From the IMG/VR virus record IMGVR_UViG_2778261226_000007: a DNA stretch of 31,860 bases; one strand, written 5' to 3'. A program made the position numbers and the translations under genes. The DNA is from a virus. Lineage: Duplodnaviria; Heunggongvirae; Uroviricota; Caudoviricetes. This document shows positions 765-25,256 of the stretch, in pieces (position 1 is the stretch's first letter; every line of letters begins with the position of its first letter). The notes under the pieces were generated by a model. That model made no database searches and was not told the DNA's origin. It was given only the letters and a program-made list of their open reading frames with translations.

Positions 765-3700
765 CCCGACGCGATGACTGCATAATTGACACAACCCTGC
801 TGTCGATCAGATCCACCAGTCCCCTGGCTGAGCGCGTATCTATCTCGCCATTGCTCCCTTGATTCTGAATGCTAATGTGATACACGGGAGAATAAACAAA
901 TCCACCGCCACCATTCACATTGCCAATGGCTCTGACCCCAAGAGAGCCGTCCGCTGCCCGTGTCAGTGGCATGATAGCTTCAGGCCCGGCCTCGCCCATC
1001 AGCCCGGCACCTTTCGCAAAAGCAAAATACGTCGGTGTATCCACAATAGTGTTACTGTAAGCACTCAGATTTGCCGATGTGTAAACACCACCTTTTGCGT
1101 TTGCCACCGCCCCCGAAATCCATCCGCCGACCGTACCAAGCCACCCTCCGGCACCGGAGAGTGACTTCAGTCCGTTAACAATGGCCGCATTCATCAGAAT
1201 TTTTGAAACTTCCCGGAGAACTGAACTCCCCCAGTTCCTCCACTCCACAACATTCCCGGCCAGTGCATCGGAAATATTTGATACCAGCCCGTCCATCGTG
1301 GAAACAACAGCATCTGCCGCCTGTGAAGCATAATCGGTGGCACTGTCTGCCCAGTTGGTCAGTCCCTCCTGGAGTCCGGCATTCCAGTTATTACGTAAAG
1401 CATCGGCCTTTGCATAATAATCCTGCTGATCGCTGAGACGCTCTTCCAGATATTTTTTATTCAGTTCTTTCTCCTGTTTCCACAGGGCTTCTTCAATTTC
1501 TCCGGCCTGATACTGTCTCAGCAGCTCGTTATTTTTCTGCTCAAACTCATGCCGGATACTCCACATTTCCTGGAGTCGTTCACGCATCCGTGAGCCTTCA
1601 CCATATCCCAGCAACTGCGCGTCGTCAGATGCCCGGGCACTGGCATTACTGTCCGCCAGACTGCTTTCATACGCGGCAAGCTGCTCACGAATCTTTTTCT
1701 GGTCGATGAGTGCTGCATTCTGCAAAAGCGTTTTTTTCTGCGCTTCTGACAGGGTTGATAATTCGCCCTGACTGACCTGATATTTCATCTTAGCCAGTTC
1801 AGTATTCTGCCCTGCCAGTGCTATCTGTTCTTTTTGCTGTTTAATCAGCCGTTTATAAATATCTTCTGTTTTTTCCGCTTCGGTCTTTTTATGCGCTTTG
1901 GGTTTATTTGCCTGGTTATTTCGCCAGGCATCCAGTGAGTTATTGATATAATTCTGTCTGGCTGTCCGATACGCCTCTCCCACAAAGCCGAGATCATCCG
2001 CAGCATAGCCCAGTCGGGCACGCTCACGCGCTTCCCCCTTAAGGCGGGACAGAGCCAGTTCGCGCTTGCTGTTATTCAGTGCGGTCTGCTGTTTATCATC
2101 CAGAGTTGCCTGTGGTAGCCGTAACGGTACATTCACCAGCCCCTGTCGCTGCTGAAGTAATTCATTACCAAGCCCGAGAAGGCGATTAAACTCGGTATGC
2201 TTCCCATTCATGATCAACAGGGACTGATACGCTTTGTTTTGTTCCGCTGCCTGTTGACGGATCAACGCCACTCGTCGCTCCTCCAGCCCGGCAAGCACAT
2301 CCTGAATGGATTGCGCTTTGCCCTGCATTTGTGTGAGACGGGACTGTTCAACTGCCAGTTGATTTGTTGCTTCTGCAAGCCCTTTAAGGATGATTTCAGC
2401 ACCAGAACCACTCTGCGAACTTTCATCAAGCCAACGTTGATAATCAGCAATTTGATTTTTCAGTCCGCGAATTTTTCCTTCCTGTTCGTTAATCAGGCGA
2501 TTTTGTTCCTCCAGTGCCTGCCGCGTCTTTTCCTCATTATCTGACGCTTCAGGAAGCGACATTGCCGACGTTTTCTGACGAATTTCGTCGATTGTTGCGG
2601 CATACTGGCGTGCAGATTCTCTGGCCTGCTCCTGATTCTGATACATCGTGTACCAGGCCGTCGCCCCCAGCATGACGAGTCCCGGCACACCACCAACCAG
2701 CCCCAGCGCACCACTTAATAAACGACTCCCCACTGACGTGACAGTATTCAGCGTTGTCTGTGCTGCTGTTCTGGCCGCAATATTACGGGTAAGTGATGCC
2801 TGGGCAGCAGCCAGTTTCGCTTCTGCGGCTGCCTGTCTTTCAGTACCACGGGTAGCCGCGACCGCCTGTTGCGCACGATAAACCGCCGCACGCGCCCTGG
2901 CGGTTGCTATCTGCGTCCCCCGGAGCTGCGCTTCCGCAAGAGCTACTTCGTTTCTGGCTGCAGTAATTAATCCGGCAGTTGCAGATCCAGCAGAAGATGC
3001 CATATTGCCAAAATATCGGGCTACCCCGACGGCAACCAGAGCACCGGCAGCGGTTGCCACAGTGTCAATATTGCCTGCAATACCATTCAGCACACCGGAG
3101 AGCGTCTTCGTCACTCCGCTTGCTTCGTTCGCACCACCAACCCAGGCCATAAAGGCGTTTTCAACTTTGGTTGCAGAGGATGAAACCGTATCAGGCATTG
3201 CTGCATATTCATCACGCAACGCCCCAAGCTGACTAATCAGTGCAGGAACAACCTTATCGGCGGTCAACTTTCCGTTATCCGCCATGGCCTTCAGATCCTT
3301 ACGGGCAACACCCATTCCCGCAGCCAGCGCACGAATAACACGATCGCCGTTCTCATTCACAGAGTTAAATTCTTCACCGCGCAGCACTCCCTGCGCCAGT
3401 GCCTGACTGAACTGCGTGATCACCGAACTGGCTTCTGCTGCACTGGCACCGGATAATTTCAGGCCCGTGGAGATAGCCTCGGTGACTTTCAGTACCTCCT
3501 CAGAACTGTAGCCATACTCCCGCATGGAAGCTGCAGAGCGGGCAAAAAGGCTGGCGTTATCAGAAAACGCCGTTCCCGTTCTCTGGCTGATTGCCATTAA
3601 TTCACGTTGTGATACCTGAAAATCATCAGTGGACTGTGAGGCCTGCTTCAGACGGGCATTTACTGAATTCCACTCATCGGCGAGAGAAATAAGATGACCG

Positions 3701-18933: not shown

Positions 18934-19172
18934 CGCAGTACCCCCTGCACCAATTTTTCAAATTTTCCAACTTTTGTTTCCAGCTCTGCCACACAATCCA
19001 CCAGCTCATCCACCGCTTTTTGTGCGCGGTGTTTTGCCTGCATCAGTTCTCTGAGCGCGGGTACCATATCCCGACGAATGGCATCTTTTGTTACGCCTGT
19101 CTTTTCCAGTTGTTCCGCCTGTCGTAACATTTCCTGTGCCTGTTTACGTAATTGTTCAGGCGTAAAAGTCAT
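18930..19172 (-). CDS. Hypothetical small coiled-coil protein
   Basis: Start taken at MTFTPEQL; the ORF-track start is a TTG. Lies between the helicase and RusA genes. Confidence 0.4.
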   Translation of the reverse strand: MTFTPEQLRKQAQEMLRQAEQLEKTGVTKDAIRRDMVPALRELMQAKHRAQKAVDELVDCVAELETKVGKFEKLVQGVLR

Positions 19173-19183
19173 GGTCTGGTTGT

Positions 19184-20575
19184 TCAAAAGAAACGCTCCA
19201 TCTTACTGCTGTCGGTTCGCTTATTGCTGTATCTGCGCGGCTGGGGCTGCTGCATTGGGGTGGAAAGAATCTGTGCGCTTTCCTGGTCTACGGGCAGAAA
19301 ATGTCCGTTATAAAAACGCCGGTAAATCGTCCCCAGAGAACCGTTACGTTGTTTCGTGATATTGATTTCTGCAATGCCTCTGGCCTGCGTATCCGGGTTG
19401 TACACTTCATCCCTGTAAAGCATCAGAATGATGTCTGCATCCGCCTCTATTTCTCCGGAATTTTTCAGGTCTGAGTTCATAGGTCGTTTATTGGGTCTGG
19501 ACTCAACTCCACGGGAAAGTTGGCTCAGCGCAACCACCGGTAATCCGCCGGATTTTGCCAGGCCTTTAAGCCCTTTTGATATTTCCCCCACGGCAAGGTC
19601 ATGACGTCCTATGGTACGGGTTTTTATCAGCCCGAGATAATCAACCACCACCAGCGCCGTTTCCGGGTGTTTAATCAGATGGTGTTTCGTTGTTGCGCAT
19701 ATTTCATCAATGGTCAGGTTCGCCTGGTCCACCATCCAGATATTGCGTCCGGTCATCAGCTCCACCCCCTTAATGAAACGCGCCCAGTCTTCGTCACCAA
19801 AGTGAGAGACAGATTTCAGGCGCGATACAGGCATTCCTCCGGCAGCAGACACCATGCGTTCACCGATCTGAATGTTCGCCATTTCCATTGTGAACAGAAG
19901 AACACCATGCCCCTGCTCAGTCACCTTGTCGATGATATCCAGCGCCAGTTCGGTTTTGCCCATTGACGGACGAGCCGCAATAAATACCAGATCGCCGGGC
20001 TCCATGCCGCCTGTTTTTGCGTCCAGTTCATCAATACCGGTCATCAACGTTCTGGATTTTTCCAGTCCCTGATTCCGGCATTCAACACGGTCAACCACCT
20101 CCGGAAGCACATCATCAATATGTACCGGCTGAATAATGCCCTTTTCCGTCGACAATGAAGCCATCATGTTCTGCGCATCCTTCAGGACATCTTCAGCTGC
20201 TTCACAGGTATGCGCATCACGTAATTTCTGCAGCGCCTCATTCAGTGTTTTTTCTGCATCACGCAATGCAGCATTGCGCCGCAACGCTGCAACATAGTGC
20301 TCCAGTGAAGACTTCACCCAGGTTTTACGCCCGGTATCAGTAATCACCGGAGCAAGTTCCGGCATTTCATTACACAGCAGCACAGGATCAATCACACCTG
20401 AAACACGAGCCTGTCGGCAGATGCCTGTGTAGATATCCCTATACGCTCGTACAGAAAAAACGTCCGCTGGCAGTGTGGCCAGAATATCCATCACTTCATG
20501 ATCTGCCCCACGCAGAAAAAACGCGCCAATGACAGCGCCTTCCAGATCATCGTTACGCCATACTGGAGTGGTCAT
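19184..20575 (-). CDS. Replicative DNA helicase (DnaB-like)
   Basis: 463 aa with Walker A (ARPSMGKT) and the overall DnaB C-terminal RecA-like organisation. Confidence 0.85.
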   Translation of the reverse strand: MTTPVWRNDDLEGAVIGAFFLRGADHEVMDILATLPADVFSVRAYRDIYTGICRQARVSGVIDPVLLCNEMPELAPVITDTGRKTWVKSSLEHYVAALRRNAALRDAEKTLNEALQKLRDAHTCEAAEDVLKDAQNMMASLSTEKGIIQPVHIDDVLPEVVDRVECRNQGLEKSRTLMTGIDELDAKTGGMEPGDLVFIAARPSMGKTELALDIIDKVTEQGHGVLLFTMEMANIQIGERMVSAAGGMPVSRLKSVSHFGDEDWARFIKGVELMTGRNIWMVDQANLTIDEICATTKHHLIKHPETALVVVDYLGLIKTRTIGRHDLAVGEISKGLKGLAKSGGLPVVALSQLSRGVESRPNKRPMNSDLKNSGEIEADADIILMLYRDEVYNPDTQARGIAEINITKQRNGSLGTIYRRFYNGHFLPVDQESAQILSTPMQQPQPRRYSNKRTDSSKMERFF

Positions 20576-21459
20576 GCAGCCACACCTCCAATATGCGCAC
20601 GATAGCTGGGCCAGTTAAACGACAACCAGTTGCGTCCCCCGTCTGTGATCCTGTCGGCAATGCGGGGGCTGATGAACGCCCACAACTCTTCCGGTGAAAG
20701 GTTGCTGATCAGGATGGTGGGCAGGATGCTTTCGTACCGGGCATTGATAATTTCCTGCAAAATAGCCATTTCAGCCGCGCTGCCAAACTGAACGCCGACT
20801 TCGTCGATGATCAGCAAATCCAATGACGCATAATGCTCAATAACTTCATCCGCTGTTTTTTCGCTGTCATTCCGCCAGCAGTTTTTCACAGCACGGGTAA
20901 GGCGCATCACATCAGTAATCTCCACACTGGCCAGATGGTTACGGATGATGTGTTTTGCCATAGCCACAGCCAGATGATTTTTTCCGGTACCACAACTGCC
21001 TGTCAGAACAAGACTGGTACCGTTAGCCAGAACATCCTCCCAGCTCTCTGCATAGCGGCGGCAGGCAGCAAGATTTCTGGCTGCATCAGAGTTAATCTCC
21101 TGATAGTTTTCAAACTCACAGTCGCGAAACCTACAGGCAACACCAGCATTCTCAATCAGCACATCAGCTTTCATTGCAACCAGAGTCCGATGTGTCACAT
21201 CCATTTCATCCACCAGACACTCCGGACAGCGGGAAATTTTTGAGACAGCGCCCCCCTGCCGATCATCCCACACCAGTATATGCGTACGATATTTACCGTG
21301 TTTTTCGCAGCATCCAACCCCTTCAGATTCCCGGCAGGCGCGGTAAGGCCATGGCTTTTCGCCATTCTGAGCAAATGCAATCTCTGCCCGTAACTCATCC
21401 ATTCGCGCCTGTAGTCTTGTTTGTTTCTCACGTTGGTTAATCGTCATCATCGCTGTCAC
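20572..21459 (-). CDS. DnaC/IstB-like AAA+ helicase loader with N-terminal Cys-rich region
   Basis: Walker A GSCGTGKNHLA and Walker B LLIIDEVG; N-terminal Cys cluster; start overlaps the upstream gene's stop. Confidence 0.75.
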   Translation of the reverse strand: MTAMMTINQREKQTRLQARMDELRAEIAFAQNGEKPWPYRACRESEGVGCCEKHGKYRTHILVWDDRQGGAVSKISRCPECLVDEMDVTHRTLVAMKADVLIENAGVACRFRDCEFENYQEINSDAARNLAACRRYAESWEDVLANGTSLVLTGSCGTGKNHLAVAMAKHIIRNHLASVEITDVMRLTRAVKNCWRNDSEKTADEVIEHYASLDLLIIDEVGVQFGSAAEMAILQEIINARYESILPTILISNLSPEELWAFISPRIADRITDGGRNWLSFNWPSYRAHIGGVAA

Positions 21460-21460
21460 C

Positions 21461-22453
21461 TCAGAATGTCAGTTTGTCACTGGATTTACCGAATTTGTCA
21501 GACATGGCTCCCAGGCCAGCCAGGACATCGACCTGTCGCTGTCGCCCACCTCCGGGAGCGGCTGGCTGTTGCCAAGATTCGTCAAAGTGCCGATCGGGGC
21601 CAAAGAACGTCGCAGCCTGCTTCACGAACTGTGTGCCGGTATTTCCTGTAGCACGTACCCAGGCTGCATACCGCCTTACGCCATTAAGCATGGTCTCCGG
21701 TTTTATTCCCTCCCTGATACGAGCTTTCCAGGCTTTGAAGGCTGCTGACTTGGAATTACCACCAGCACGTTTGGGATATTCCTGCCAGGCCTGTTCAAAT
21801 TCCGGTGAATATTCCTGTCGGGCAGAACGCGCTGGTGCAGACGCGTCAGCGGATGCGCCAATAGTGTTTTTAGTCTCCGTTGTAATCTCTGTAGTAATCT
21901 CTGTATTTGTATCAACATTCGGCGTATCCCCTGTTCCGTTATGACGTTGGGGGGTGTTCCGTTTTAACGTAATAGCTGTATCGCTGATTGAGTTATTGCT
22001 GTTACTTTCTGGCGAAACAGAAGAAGGTGTGGTGATGGCAGCAATTGCCTGTGGGTTGATCCCGACAAACAAAATATTGCTGCATTTCACCCCGTCTAGC
22101 ATTTCCACCGTACGTAAATCCAGAGTAATAAACCCAGCATCACGAAGACGCTTCAGCGCATCTGCGGTTTCCCTTTTCCCAAAGCCAAACTGTTCAGCAA
22201 ACGCCTGATAGCTTCTTTGCAGCTTGTCACCCTGAAAACGCTTGCGATATCCCAGTAAAGCCCCGGTATGCTCATCCCTGACTTCTGTCGGGCGGTACCA
22301 GTAAACAATCTCTGAAAGCAGCGCAATGGCAGTCGCATCCGGACGACCACTTGGTAGCCGAATATGTTTCCACCAGTTCGCTGGTGTGACATTGCCAGAA
22401 ATATTGAGTTGGCCAATAGCCATAACTTCAGGTGTAGGAGCGTAACGGCTCAC
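21461..22453 (-). CDS. Replication initiation protein (O-like / replisome organiser)
   Basis: Immediately upstream of the loader and helicase genes. Contains an internal tandem repeat (TEITTEITTE) like the ori iterons inside lambda O. Confidence 0.6.
   Translation of the reverse strand: MSRYAPTPEVMAIGQLNISGNVTPANWWKHIRLPSGRPDATAIALLSEIVYWYRPTEVRDEHTGALLGYRKRFQGDKLQRSYQAFAEQFGFGKRETADALKRLRDAGFITLDLRTVEMLDGVKCSNILFVGINPQAIAAITTPSSVSPESNSNNSISDTAITLKRNTPQRHNGTGDTPNVDTNTEITTEITTETKNTIGASADASAPARSARQEYSPEFEQAWQEYPKRAGGNSKSAAFKAWKARIREGIKPETMLNGVRRYAAWVRATGNTGTQFVKQAATFFGPDRHFDESWQQPAAPGGGRQRQVDVLAGLGAMSDKFGKSSDKLTF
21882..21905. repeat. Exact 12-bp tandem direct repeat (gtaatctctgta x2), candidate origin iterons
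   Basis: Read directly: tgtaatctctgtagtaatctctgtatttgtatc inside the initiator gene, with partial copies adjacent. Confidence 0.45.
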
Positions 22454-22674
22454 ACGGCACCTCCCAGACGCTTAAACATTTTTCCAGACAGAAATACCGC
22501 CAGCGGGTAACTGATGGTGTAGCTACGCCCCTGTAGTTCGCACACGACTTTCTGGCTTTCAGCGTTGACTAGGCAACCCCGCAGAACGTGACCGTTGCTG
22601 GTGGCGAACCACTGCCCCACACGGGGGCAACGGTTGTATCGGTGATACAGGGAATTAACGATGCGGCGAATCAT
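22450..22674 (-). CDS. Hypothetical small Cys-containing protein
   Basis: 74-aa ORF whose first ~20 nt (GGAGGCGCACCCATGATTCGC) nearly duplicate the 5' end of leader module B. ATGA-coupled to the initiator gene. Confidence 0.4.
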   Translation of the reverse strand: MIRRIVNSLYHRYNRCPRVGQWFATSNGHVLRGCLVNAESQKVVCELQGRSYTISYPLAVFLSGKMFKRLGGAV

Positions 22675-23222
22675 GGGTGCGCCTCCTTGTCAGAACCATT
22701 AAGTCTGGAATCAACAAGTGCAGCGCCAAAAACAGCATCTCCTACACGGTCATACAGCTTGCTCGCCAGCGGAGATTCAACGGCCTTAAGCATGGGGTAA
22801 AGCTGGCTTTTCCAGATTTGATGGATTTCACGCAAATGCAGGTATACGCCTCTGGCGTTTCGTGCAACAGCTGACATATCAACCGCGTCAGCACCAGATA
22901 AATTCTTCTCCATCTGGTTAAAGGCGTTGATGTATGCCTCTTTGAACCTGGCTGCACGTTTGCCAGTGAAGCCCATGGCAAGAAACGCAAAACCGTCGCG
23001 GGTGATTTGGTAGCAGGGAAGTTTGCGGCCTGATGCGTCGGTGTATTCACTTAACACAAAATTGTGTTCAGTAAATTCAGCGGAACATTCGAGGTTTCGA
23101 ATTCTGTCTAAAACCCGCTCATGCCGTTTAGTAAAGTAATTAGAAACTGCAAGAGATGTGGTGACAACACGACCATTGATAATCGTGATTTCAGGGTGAG
23201 ATTGGGTTGGGAGAGTAGTCAT
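22671..23222 (-). CDS. Rha-family phage regulatory protein (copy B)
   Basis: Start taken at MTTLPTQ. The N-terminal region (...VSNYFTKRHERVLDRIRNL...YQITRDGFAFLAMGFTGKRAARFKEAYINAF) looks like a Rha domain. The ORF-track N-terminal extension is the leader. Confidence 0.65.
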   Translation of the reverse strand: MTTLPTQSHPEITIINGRVVTTSLAVSNYFTKRHERVLDRIRNLECSAEFTEHNFVLSEYTDASGRKLPCYQITRDGFAFLAMGFTGKRAARFKEAYINAFNQMEKNLSGADAVDMSAVARNARGVYLHLREIHQIWKSQLYPMLKAVESPLASKLYDRVGDAVFGAALVDSRLNGSDKEAHP

Positions 23223-23534
23223 GGTGACAGCCCCTATGTTGAATTCAATGAACTCACCACCAAGGCTTTCCACGACCATATAGGTGGTGAGACGTACAGG
23301 GGTGGAAATACCGGTCAACATAGAACCCGGCCCAACCGAAGTTGGCCCTGCACGCCCCACCATAATTTGGGCGTAACGATGCTCATGACACGAAAAAACC
23401 GCATGAGCGCGGTTGTGCTCTATATTGAATTTCGGGTTTCCACGCCCGGCCCCCGCTTTATAAGGTGCAGAGACAGTGTAACGTCCCAAAAGTGCAGAAT
23501 CAATATGTTGGCGAATCATGGGCGCACCTCCCAT
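23223..23534 (-). promoter_or_regulatory. Leader module B: promoter, short terminated transcript and structured region upstream of Rha copy B
   Basis: Minus strand has TTGATT (23503-23498), a 17-nt spacer and TACACT (23480-23475); a hairpin plus U6 (ccgcgctcatgcggTTTTTT, 23393-23412); and a UUCG-loop hairpin (23329-23347). Confidence 0.55.
23393..23468 (-). ncRNA. Candidate short leader RNA B
   Basis: Inferred from promoter and terminator positions; approximate ends. Confidence 0.35.
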
Positions 23535-23877
23535 TGATTACGACGGAAAACAGTGTGATTCAGGTTGGTTTCAGCCTCATGGAATGCTTCAATACAGCTC
23601 TCGTAGTACCGCATTGTGCGCAGACTTAACCCAAGCTGAAGCATCATCAGGCCATCAAGGGTGATGTAATAACCACGCAGGGAATCGCCATACACGTGGT
23701 AAGTACCCGGTATGAAATTACGGGAGAAGAATTCACGCGAGCAGTTCAGATACTCGATTTTGTCGACGATATTCTGGTGCATGCGCTTGAAGTGGCAGGC
23801 AACATGCAGGGAGAAAATAACAGCCTTACCGTTGACGATCTCAATTTTGAGGAATGGGGAAGTTGGGATCGTAGCCA
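23516..23877 (-). CDS. Rha-family phage regulatory protein (copy A)
   Basis: Start taken at MATIPTS. Contains KRMHQNIVDKIEYL...YYITLDGLMMLQLGL, resembling a Rha domain. Its stop is ATGA-overlapped with the start of leader B. Confidence 0.6.
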
Positions 23878-24192
23878 TGATGGCAGCCTCCGTATGCAAT
23901 GGATAACTTCCACCACCGGAAACGCCAATTTCGCTGGTGGTGAACTGAGCAGGGTTGGCGTAACCGGCGCATACGGAAACCGGCGCACCTTTCGGTGCCC
24001 CCACCCAGCCCACCATAATTTGGGTATAGCTGAGTTGTAGCAACAAAAAAGACGCTAACGCGCCAATTGTCGCCGTATGCAATTCCAGGACGCCAATCCC
24101 GGCACCCGCTTTATAAGGTGCTGGAACAGTGTAACGTCCCGAAATTGCAGAATCAATATGTTGGTTGCGGATCATTTTGTACCTACTCGCCG
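23878..24192 (-). promoter_or_regulatory. Leader module A: promoter, short terminated transcript and structured region upstream of Rha copy A
   Basis: Minus strand has TTGATT (24156-24151), a 17-nt spacer and TACACT (24133-24128); a hairpin plus U6 (24044-24064); and a GAAA tetraloop hairpin gcaccGAAAggtgc (23985-23998). Confidence 0.55.
24045..24120 (-). ncRNA. Candidate short leader RNA A
   Basis: Inferred from promoter and terminator positions; approximate ends. Confidence 0.35.
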
Positions 24193-24402
24193 TCAATCCG
24201 CGTTTTCGCGCTGATTCCAGTCATGAACAGCACGTTCTTTCGAATCAGGGATCTGGTTTGCGTTACAGCAAGTACATGCGACGTAATAACCATCATCGCC
24301 ATCCAGAAAATATTTCACCTCAATGAGTTGTACTTCCGGATTTCCGCAGAACGGGCAAGGTTTCAGATCGACATCACCAGTTACACACGTCTTGGTTTGC
24401 AT
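24193..24402 (-). CDS. Lar-family restriction alleviation protein (zinc ribbon)
   Basis: 69 aa with CPFCG...CTCC zinc-ribbon spacing typical of the Lar family found in Rac-type prophages. Confidence 0.65.
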   Translation of the reverse strand: MQTKTCVTGDVDLKPCPFCGNPEVQLIEVKYFLDGDDGYYVACTCCNANQIPDSKERAVHDWNQRENAD

Positions 24403-25256
24403 TATTTGTTCTCCTGTAAAAGATTCGCGAGCTCAGTGTTATGGGTAAACAGCCCATCCCATGTTTTCTTCATCGGTAGTTCACCGTTCAGATAATGGCG
24501 ATATAACCAGGCGGCACCTTTTTTCTTCAGGAGTGGTTTGAAAATCTCGCGCATTTCCCCGTTTTCCTGCTCAACCTGCCCAGAACGCTCAGTCAGGTAT
24601 TGGTCACGTGCATACGCTTTTACACGCCAGCGCGGATACATAGCCTCCGGACGGTCGTCATACAGCCAGTTACGCTCTTCAAGGAACGCATTAATCTGAC
24701 GAGTGTTTACACCGTTGAGTTGTTTGCAGAACTGCACAGGAGTGATGCCATCGGCGAGATGGCTTTCGAGTTTGCTGATGTAGCGAGCCTGACGCTCTGC
24801 ATACCCGAGAGCAAGGCGTTCGGATTTTTTGGCTTCAATCCACGCTTCAGCAGCAGCGATCGGATCGTCAAAGTCTGGAATAGTGTTTGAAGAAGGCGTT
24901 GCTTTACGAAAATACGCCTGCTCCATTTTTTCGAAGAACGACCAGGCCTCGTCTGTATCGACGATTTTTGACATGCGGGCAGCGCCGCGTTCTGTCCAGA
25001 GGACAAGTGATGTTGTATGTTTATTAACCGACTCGCTAAAAGATAGTCGGAAAGATTTCAGCTCATCACCGCTGATTTTGAAAAAGTGTTTACCCTCAAC
25101 GAAACGATCTTCGTTTCGAATGTAGTTCTGTTGTATACGGATTGGCGTTGTTCCATATCCCGCCGCCAACGTTTCGGTGGTAACTACACGTACTCCCTGC
25201 CACTCAATAACTGGCAAGTTTTCAGGGTTGACTAATTTTTGTTTATTGATCATCAT
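24402..25256 (-). CDS. Antirepressor-like protein with N-terminal ORF6N domain and a C-terminal extension (KilA-C-like)
   Basis: The N-terminal ~110 aa is paralogous to the 17421..17909 product. First large gene downstream of cro. Confidence 0.7.
   Translation of the reverse strand: MMINKQKLVNPENLPVIEWQGVRVVTTETLAAGYGTTPIRIQQNYIRNEDRFVEGKHFFKISGDELKSFRLSFSESVNKHTTSLVLWTERGAARMSKIVDTDEAWSFFEKMEQAYFRKATPSSNTIPDFDDPIAAAEAWIEAKKSERLALGYAERQARYISKLESHLADGITPVQFCKQLNGVNTRQINAFLEERNWLYDDRPEAMYPRWRVKAYARDQYLTERSGQVEQENGEMREIFKPLLKKKGAAWLYRHYLNGELPMKKTWDGLFTHNTELANLLQENK

Follow-up and report, generated by a model that had tools for sequence, protein, structure and literature searches.

Does an exact 12-bp tandem repeat inside a phage replication initiator gene represent the iteron array of a lambda-type origin, or does it serve the origin in another way? 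The repeat in question lies in a stretch of 31,860 nt from a tailed phage (Caudoviricetes; IMG/VR record IMGVR_UViG_2778261226_000007), referred to here in its entirety as the window, within a minus-strand gene whose product is a lambda-O-like initiator in the broad sense. The first-pass annotation of this DNA had taken the 12-mers for iterons and the array for the likely origin. Judging from the position of the repeats in the gene and from the anatomy of related genes, we place an origin very probably in the linker-coding DNA of the initiator gene, but not with the 12-mers as its lambda-type iteron array. The explanation that we favor, and consider on balance probable, is that the linker DNA is a lambda-type origin composed of two repeat systems, namely iterons with a 23-bp period and a 12-mer unwinding or loading element.

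Two repeat systems in the initiator gene

The sequence GTAATCTCTGTA was read directly from the window twice in exact tandem at 21882–21905 (plus strand, gtaatctctgta gtaatctctgta; in gene orientation, the unit TACAGAGATTAC twice), and Tandem Repeats Finder returned 21874–21905 (period 12, 2.7 copies, score 50) as the top-scoring tandem repeat of the 31.9-kb window. By our own arithmetic, 31,860 random bases would contain a 12-bp stretch duplicated exactly in tandem with a probability of approximately 31860 × 4^-12 = 0.002. The exact 12-mer has no further occurrence within the window, and allowing up to two mismatches yielded 6 matches compared to 1.38 expected, a number reached by 1 of 100 shuffles; a degenerate copy, TACAGCTATTAC, is found at 21969–21980. 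The exact repeat, its location in an O-like initiator gene (phrog_270, E = 3.5e-78) and its in-frame product TEITTEITTE were borne out as first annotated, and of the partial copies said to adjoin it, one was found on one side (21870–21881, 8/12 positions) and none on the other. In gene orientation, 21904–21869 reads ACAGAGATTACT ACAGAGATTACA ACGGAGACTAAA, followed by the GC-rich, conserved C-terminal module of the gene. The unit has a period of 12 bp, and no inverted repeat or dyad symmetry was found in it.

All repeats between 21870 and 21973 correspond to residues 161–195 and fall within the linker between the folded domains of the initiator (Table 1). Directly 5′ of the 12-mers in gene orientation, we identified three 23-bp-phased, partly dyad-symmetric repeats (21905–21973), which from their sequence appear to be the better iteron candidates and are the predicted sites of the initiator. 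The first two share the exact 9-mer AACGGAACA at a spacing of 23 bp and in different reading frames, and it is therefore a repeat of DNA rather than of peptide. In the Xenorhabdus relative L466, four clean dyad repeats (TTACGTT-GA-AACGTAA) keep the same 23-bp register and run into its array, and another relative, L177, has five copies of TGTCCAnnGGTATGGACA spaced at 22–23 bp, followed by the array; in the window, the array starts where the last 23-bp repeat ends. For an origin elsewhere in the window, a direct-repeat search gave just two small two-copy families.

Duplex stability was calculated across 19184–22674, where the array proved to be the least stable 30-, 40- and 60-bp window (rank 1 of ~3,450; start at 21860–21883 depending on window size; GC 0.30). 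The same calculation performed on lambda as a control placed the minimum at 39122–39161, which is the established AT-rich tract immediately 3′ of iteron 4. An AT-rich unwinding element had been anticipated adjacent to the 12-mers, and the least stable stretch is instead the 12-mer array itself, at the position expected for such an element beside an array. Because it is located as is the A+T-rich tract of lambda and is the stretch of the operon that is easiest to melt, we infer from position and low stability that the array may act as a sequence-specific unwinding or loading element. According to this model, the N-terminal winged-helix domain would bind the three 23-bp-phased repeats, the iteron-bound initiator would open the duplex at the 12-mer array (21870–21905), one strand would probably be held sequence-specifically, in the manner of the oriC and RK2 13-mers, and the DnaC-like loader would place the DnaB-like helicase on the opened DNA.

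Conservation and spread of the 12-bp word

Distant relatives of the N-terminal domain, retrieved by protein search (45–72% identity; contigs of 32–58% GC), carry the same word at the same place (TACAGAGATTAC or TACAGAGACTAC, TACGGAGATTAC, TTCAGAGAATTC), with the consensus ACAGAGAnTACW; the peptide shifts between TEIT, TETT and SENS, and the CAGAGA core is retained. Scanning IMG/VR with the pattern ACNGARATHACNACNGARATHACN, which comprises all 9,216 codings of TEITTEIT, we found ACA GAG ATT/ATC AC(T/A) in 86 of 87 matches and in 25 of 26 distinct upstream contexts. Codon usage was further analyzed in nine lineages picked by protein alone (GC 0.32–0.61, pooled). Inside the arrays, GAG was used for Glu at a ratio of 20:1, compared to 83:68 outside them in the same genes (p = 2e-4), and ACA/ACT for Thr at 49:4, compared to 81:100 (p = 7e-11), counts whose independence is overstated in that slippage homogenizes the units within an array; the direction of the bias was identical in all nine lineages. 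In a contig of 61% GC, the array Thr codons are ACA/ACT alone, whereas the rest of the gene favors ACC/ACG. The four G/C positions of the word are invariant (positions fixed by the search pattern). Together, these data indicate that the DNA word, rather than the encoded peptide, is the conserved feature.

A functional (T-E-x-T)n peptide, such as a short linear motif recognized by a partner or a protease, with the constraint on the DNA being secondary, would be consistent with the reading frame, which is nearly always T-E-x-T (75/80 among the matches listed, read xCA GAG Axx), and with half of the family representatives having the array near residue 180. We regard this as highly improbable, given that the third amino acid of the unit varies freely among chemically unlike residues (I, T, N, S) and T also changes to S with the flanking bases fixed, that synonymous positions are constrained, and that in the lambda precedent the peptide of this region is dispensable for O function (PMC6022878). 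The linker is predicted to be disordered, and the peptide is therefore unlikely to be structured.

The tandem word is widely distributed and marks initiator genes. A scan for CAGAGA-N6-CAGAGA-N6-CAGAGA returned at least 120 viral contigs compared to ~2 expected, and a scan for ACAGAGANTACNACAGAGANTAC returned at least 120 species genomes compared to ~1 expected by chance. Taxa with the tandem word comprise Gamma-, Beta-, Alpha- and Deltaproteobacteria, Firmicutes, Cyanobacteria, Chloroflexi, Gracilibacteria, Saprospirales, Fibrobacteres, Nitrospirae and one DPANN archaeon known from a metagenome-assembled genome (MAG), and the locus GC of word-bearing species loci spans 0.22–0.61. The DPANN match is the Candidatus Iainarchaeum MAG L473, and the matches from the Candidate Phyla Radiation are the Gracilibacteria L415 and L420; these may represent genuine residents, prophages or contaminants from binning. 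Among the matches listed, 63 viral open reading frames (ORFs) have a true 12-bp period, with phrog_428 in 46, phrog_6493 in 44 and matches to further O-like initiator families in 33–39; the 64 host ORFs listed from species genomes include phrog_428 in 47 and phrog_270 in 47. The tandem word is mostly located mid-gene in O-like or DnaD-like initiators. The C-terminal domains of the species-genome ORFs differ (Phg_2220_C, DUF6017, DnaB_2, DnaT, DnaA_N), and in one E. coli phage type the array is joined to a lambda-O-like C-domain.

To what extent the array is tied to the repeats upstream of it was assessed in 59 species-genome loci, using 170 bp on the N-terminal (upstream) side in comparison with the downstream side. 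Direct repeats cover a mean of 52 nt upstream and 9 nt downstream of the array; the comparison favors the upstream side in 52 loci and the downstream one in 2 (Wilcoxon p = 1e-9). The upstream repeats are most often spaced at 23 bp, harmonics appear at 46 and ~69 bp, and in 45 of the 59 loci a locus-specific 10-mer occurs 3–7 times at ~22–23 bp, ending a median of 17 bp before the array. These 10-mer words differ from locus to locus, and the lineage-specific repeats of the family are ~18–20 bp long, often dyad-symmetric and spaced ~23 bp apart. At the protein level, the N-domain family of the window comprises 2,797 clusters at 50% identity, and a strong three-unit T-E-x-T array at ~residue 180 was detected in 71 of 141 family representatives, compared to 0 of 141 shuffled controls.

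These results bear directly on the iteron role first assigned to the 12-mers, that is, on their being duplex sites of the initiator DNA-binding domain. Iterons co-vary with the DNA-binding domain of their initiator, have a unit or spacing of ~17–24 bp and, in lambda-type origins, show dyad symmetry. The 12-mers are repeated in tandem and sit in the appropriate part of an initiator gene, the degenerate copy TACAGCTATTAC overlaps candidate iteron 1, and the word travels with one broad winged-helix superfamily, a conserved surface of which could recognize it. We nevertheless consider an iteron role quite unlikely: the word stays constant among N-domains that are less than 50% identical and beside upstream repeats that have wholly changed from lineage to lineage, and thus does not co-vary with initiator specificity. 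Moreover, its 12-bp period and lack of a dyad differ from the ~18–20-bp, often dyad-symmetric repeats at 23-bp spacing that sit 5′ of it, and its copy number ranges from 2 to 11 among near-identical genes.

Building on the favored explanation of 23-bp iterons beside a 12-mer unwinding or loading element, we tentatively propose, with less than even confidence, that tandem ACAGAGAnTACW is an undescribed cross-phylum origin element of replicons with O-like winged-helix initiators (phages and prophages, perhaps also other mobile elements), which would be read sequence-specifically and kept constant while the iterons diversify. Its reader could be a single-strand-binding surface of the initiator or conserved machinery such as the DnaB-family helicase, the loader or primase. 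An origin inside the initiator gene has been known since lambda, and the locus itself is an ordinary member of this class; what is unusual is a 12-bp origin word kept across phyla and host GC of 22–61%, while the adjoining initiator repeats differ in almost every lineage. If functional, the word would divide such origins into a replicon-specific part, the iterons, and a universal part, and would point to a conserved molecular reader. The word beside 23-bp-period repeats would then be a general signature for locating such origins in unannotated genomes, and those of thousands of prophages and phages would be locatable by sequence alone. No account of the conserved 12-mer word or its peptide was found in the literature, in a search that left subscription journals mostly uncovered, so that an earlier description is possible.

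Similar repeats also occur in other contexts. ACAGAG-based 12-bp repeats are present in a few non-initiator genes (L179, L421, L481, L201), encoding (PTET)n in a major head protein and (TETT)10 and (TEST)9 in LRR/Big_2 surface proteins, and the word is therefore not exclusive to initiators. In a giant-virus MAG, an ACAGAG-based array is read in another frame as (DYNR)n. Among the listed viral DNA-pattern matches, 14 of 80 are 6-bp-period (CAGAGA)n repeats coding for TETETE (L189, L209, L219, L222, L233, L242, L246 and others), in ORFs of ~150–460 amino acids with the recurring context '...QVA.PETETETE...'.

Copy number, mosaic structure and the role of the array

Among 80 IMG/VR relatives with the same N-domain, the perfect unit TACAGAGATTAC is present in 2 copies in 66, in 3 copies in 10, in 4 copies in 1 and in 1 copy in 1; it was undetected in the remaining 2, an apparent absence. 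E. coli STEC2018-553 carries 11 copies. The 12-mer is, accordingly, a variable-number tandem repeat, with perfect copies whose number differs among near-identical alleles. This variation (apparently 0–4 copies in the IMG/VR relatives, 11 in one E. coli genome) would suit an array devoid of DNA-level function, i.e., a slippage-prone microsatellite that encodes a flexible, Thr/Glu-rich linker and is tolerated since the linker is disordered, as predicted. The similar T/E repeats of the few non-initiators (major head protein, LRR/Big_2 surface proteins) and the frameshifted alleles around the array point in the same direction. A microsatellite of this kind appears very unlikely to us in view of the near-invariant codon choice (25/26 contexts, hosts of 22–61% GC), the fixed position of the word relative to the 23-bp repeats, and the strong enrichment of initiator genes in a search by DNA alone.

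With regard to reading frames, a 71-amino-acid ORF (MLIQIQRLLQRLQRRL...) occupies another frame of the minus strand at 21703–21918, starting just 5′ of the array and reading through it. In several database relatives (P0006, P0045, P0052), the N-domain is fused to this alternative frame, and the E. coli allele L007 is annotated as 'frameshifted', with the shift lying upstream of the array. These fusions and the frameshifted allele are probably pseudogenes or assembly errors.

The array also coincides with a mosaic boundary. Megablast against phages and many E. coli genomes gave a match limited to 21461–21904, i.e., the C-terminal half through the repeat, and the junction between the window gene and type-A phages lies at 21904/21905. 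Searching with the C-terminal module revealed five unrelated-looking N-terminal types joined to it, each with its own longer-repeat array in the linker DNA: GGGAAAC-type repeats in type A, CCTTCAAAATCTGAA and TCAGAATCTGA in type B (phiP27), ATTCACCAGGTGGTGCA-type repeats in type D and five copies of TGTGGAAACCCCGCAAAC in type E, with the window gene representing type C. In every type, the conserved C-module is directly preceded on its 5′ side by a short tandem repeat. At that site, the CAGAGA-type 12-mer is found in types A, C and E, type D (L103) carries GAACCAGTCAAW ~2.3 times, and type B (phiP27, L003 ~2905–3080; L095) carries the 24-mer AAAACATGATCCGCAAG... twice, without the CAGAGA word. 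The notion that the array travels with the C-terminal module was rejected, as the C-domains of array-bearing genes range from Phg_2220_C, DUF6017, DnaB_2 and DnaT to lambda-O-like. Similarly, the notion that the array marks one narrow N-domain family is weakened, as overlapping O-like PHROGs are matched by lambda O and by each of the five E. coli N-domain types. The initiators with other tandem repeats at the array position (L003, L095, L103) have HTH_36-like N-domains, and phiP27-type alleles have a variable number of 15-bp CCTTCAAAATCTGAA repeats.

Conservation of the word in this position could also reflect a recognition site with a non-melting role, such as the entry of helicase, loader or primase, the binding of a host factor, or a homology patch for recombination. 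The invariant G and C positions and the array GC of 0.36 in low-GC hosts suggest recognition of a sequence rather than of composition, and C-terminal domains differ widely among the array-bearing genes. For recombination in particular, homology between types A and C breaks exactly at the array (21904/5), and the lambda recombination point annotated at 39165^39166 lies inside its single CAGAGA unit. We consider a non-melting role unlikely. No known consensus fits: inspection by eye found no DnaA-box or IHF consensus in the word, no sigma-70-like site of an internal promoter was detected in 21400–22800, and no RNA element matched Rfam at E <= 1 in 21400–22500. Selection for recombination alone would not keep the word constant across phyla, and a recognition role overlaps with our favored explanation in that an unwinding element may double as a loading site. 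A hairpin or cruciform was rejected on the basis of single-strand DNA folds (z = -0.3 and -0.7 for the two strands).

Several observations weigh against an unwinding or loading element beside 23-bp iterons, as favored here. The stability minimum coincides with the array also in types C and E, but types A, B and D have the least stable window of the gene elsewhere, and types B and D have other tandem repeats in place of the word. The array has a GC of ~0.36 whatever the host and is GC-richer than its flanks in low-GC hosts (L453: 0.39 compared to 0.27 and 0.16), so that ease of melting is not the whole reason for its conservation; a purely compositional role is disfavored, and the word would appear to be recognized by something. 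The tolerance for 2–11 copies is unusual for a precisely built element, and a clear array is present in about half of the N-domain family, being common rather than universal. In addition, the window itself has two good candidate iterons and one degenerate one, the near-constant T-E-x-T frame leaves some probability for a peptide role, and slippage reduces the weight of the codon counts as noted above.

Comparison with known origins and neighboring features

The lambda origin consists of iterons and an AT-rich tract in the middle of gene O (PMC7466680, PMC3349717), of which two iterons plus the tract are enough for unwinding (PMC7466680). When 12 or 15 bp of the tract are deleted in frame, the origin is destroyed, and the O protein still complements (PMC6022878). 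The locus analyzed here resembles this arrangement in its placement in the initiator gene, in the linker between N- and C-terminal domains, in the spacing of its candidate initiator repeats (~20–24 bp; lambda iterons start at 39034, 39054, 39078 and 39101), in the low-stability tract on the C-terminal side of these repeats, and in N-domains that match overlapping O-like PHROGs. The lambda protein tolerates small in-frame changes in the tract (PMC6022878), and a single TCAGAGAATTCT unit (39163–39174) lies just right of the AT-rich tract of lambda. In contrast, the lambda tract is a non-repetitive, strongly purine/pyrimidine-asymmetric A+T run, compared to a tandem 12-mer with invariant G and C here; the C-terminal domain is not lambda-like; and the initiator is paired with a DnaC-like loader and a phage DnaB-like helicase, where lambda uses P with the host DnaB. 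Overall homology to lambda ori DNA was rejected, with Smith-Waterman alignments of lambda O to the window gene and the type-A gene scoring 24, a score equaled by 41–57 of 200 local shuffles. The lambda record (L172) lists recombination points at 39157^39158 and 39165^39166, without notes; the latter is inside the single TCAGAGAATTCT unit, at the same relative place as the mosaic junction of the window at 21904/5.

The unwinding elements of oriC and of RK2 oriV are built from 13-mers in tandem, whose exact sequence, number and arrangement are all important and of which one strand is bound by the initiator (PMC5043065). These 13-mers share with the array a short, A+T-biased 12–13-bp tandem unit beside initiator sites, and differ from it in that their sequence is unrelated to the word and the array lies within a coding region. 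The 13-mers are not interchangeable (PMC5043065), whereas the word is kept across phyla, and opening and single-strand binding are known for them, compared to sequence anatomy for the present locus. Phage SPP1 likewise has an origin, oriL, in its initiator gene 38, with direct repeats as well as an AT-rich unwinding element, and a comparable gene order of initiator G38P, loader G39P and DnaB-type helicase G40P (PMC6316719), a likeness drawn from the published description.

Closer in sequence are the replication modules of Shiga toxin (Stx) phages and phiP27, which share the C-module (88–96% DNA identity with phages bearing other N-domains) and have the same genes for loader and helicase. Four degenerate copies of the 12-mer occur in the Stx1a phage Stx1_14040. 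These phages differ in their N-domains and upstream repeats (GGGAAAC-type in type A; CCTTCAAAATCTGAA/TCAGAATCTGA in phiP27), and in phiP27 the word is absent, with a 24-mer present twice at the array position. In a survey of Stx-phage replication regions (PMC8044961), the terms 'iteron' and 'origin of replication' both have 0 occurrences. The 'phage P27' with a biochemically studied, lambda-like O and a six-iteron origin (PMC7466680) appears to be 'Enterobacteria phage 27' (FJ655934.1) and is distinct from phiP27 (AJ298298), whose initiator L17 is of the non-lambda type B; the two names invite confusion.

A prophage of E. coli UR21/11-869 matches the window at 100% identity, and the regulator, Rha/Ash, replication, RusA and Q genes follow one another in lambdoid order. 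The E. coli record NZ_OU342919.1, which is identical, labels the initiator gene 'replication protein'. No Pfam family match and no sequence relative in the PDB were found for the initiator protein. Foldseek searches with the AlphaFold2 model, in which the C-domain is helical, returned weak, generic winged-helix matches alone, including the DnaD N-domain, with none at E <= 1e-3. The loader gene and then the helicase gene follow downstream of the initiator gene on the minus strand (Table 1).

Table 1. Features of the initiator gene and of the adjoining replication genes, in window coordinates (pLDDT, predicted local distance difference test; aa, amino acids).
Feature	Position	Strand	Basis or remark
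Replication initiator gene, 330 aa, lambda-O-like in the broad sense	21461–22453	-	ORF; phrog_270 'replication initiation protein', E = 3.5e-78
N-terminal winged-helix domain, aa 1–141, presumed origin-binding	22031–22453	-	AlphaFold2 pLDDT 87–98; helix-turn-helix and beta-hairpin wing
Disordered inter-domain linker, aa 142–215, DNA with the candidate origin	21809–22030	-	pLDDT <50 at residues 149–152 and 154–215
Candidate iteron 1, ATTACGTTAAAACGGAACACCCC, imperfect dyad TTACGTT-AA-AACGGAA, 6/7	21951–21973	-	23-bp register with iterons of L466 and L173
Candidate iteron 2, CCAACGTCATAACGGAACAGGGG, mostly a half-site	21928–21950	-	9-mer AACGGAACA 23 bp from the iteron 1 copy
Candidate iteron 3, ATACGCCGAATGTTGATACAAAT, degenerate	21905–21927	-	In register; 15/23 positions as in the final iteron of L466, the Xenorhabdus relative
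Two exact 12-mer units, TACAGAGATTAC	21882–21905	-	Copy number varies in relatives, DNA word kept across phyla
Degenerate third unit, AACGGAGACTAA, 8/12 positions matching	21870–21881	-	
Near-palindrome GCAGACGCGTCAGC, start of the GC-rich conserved C-terminal module	21837–21850	.	GC up to 0.65 here in all five N-domain types
C-terminal module, aa 216–330	21461–21808	-	PHROG matches: DnaD-like loader and primosomal families
DnaC/IstB-like helicase loader gene	20572–21459	-	PF01695, E = 1.4e-15; phrog_50, E = 5e-83
DnaB-family replicative helicase gene	19184–20575	-	PF03796, E = 4.8e-72; phrog_19

Upstream of the replication genes, three successive Rha-/ash-family genes were observed at 22671–23534, 23516–24196 and ~24169–24828 (the third taken from L001, 6709–7368). 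At least two of them share the Ash-type N-terminal segment IDSA..GRYTV.APYKAGAG, and the trio looks like regulator genes amplified in tandem. The small hypothetical gene that comes right after the helicase gene contains a 9-bp tandem repeat at 18952–18975 (AATTTTCCA, 2.7 copies).

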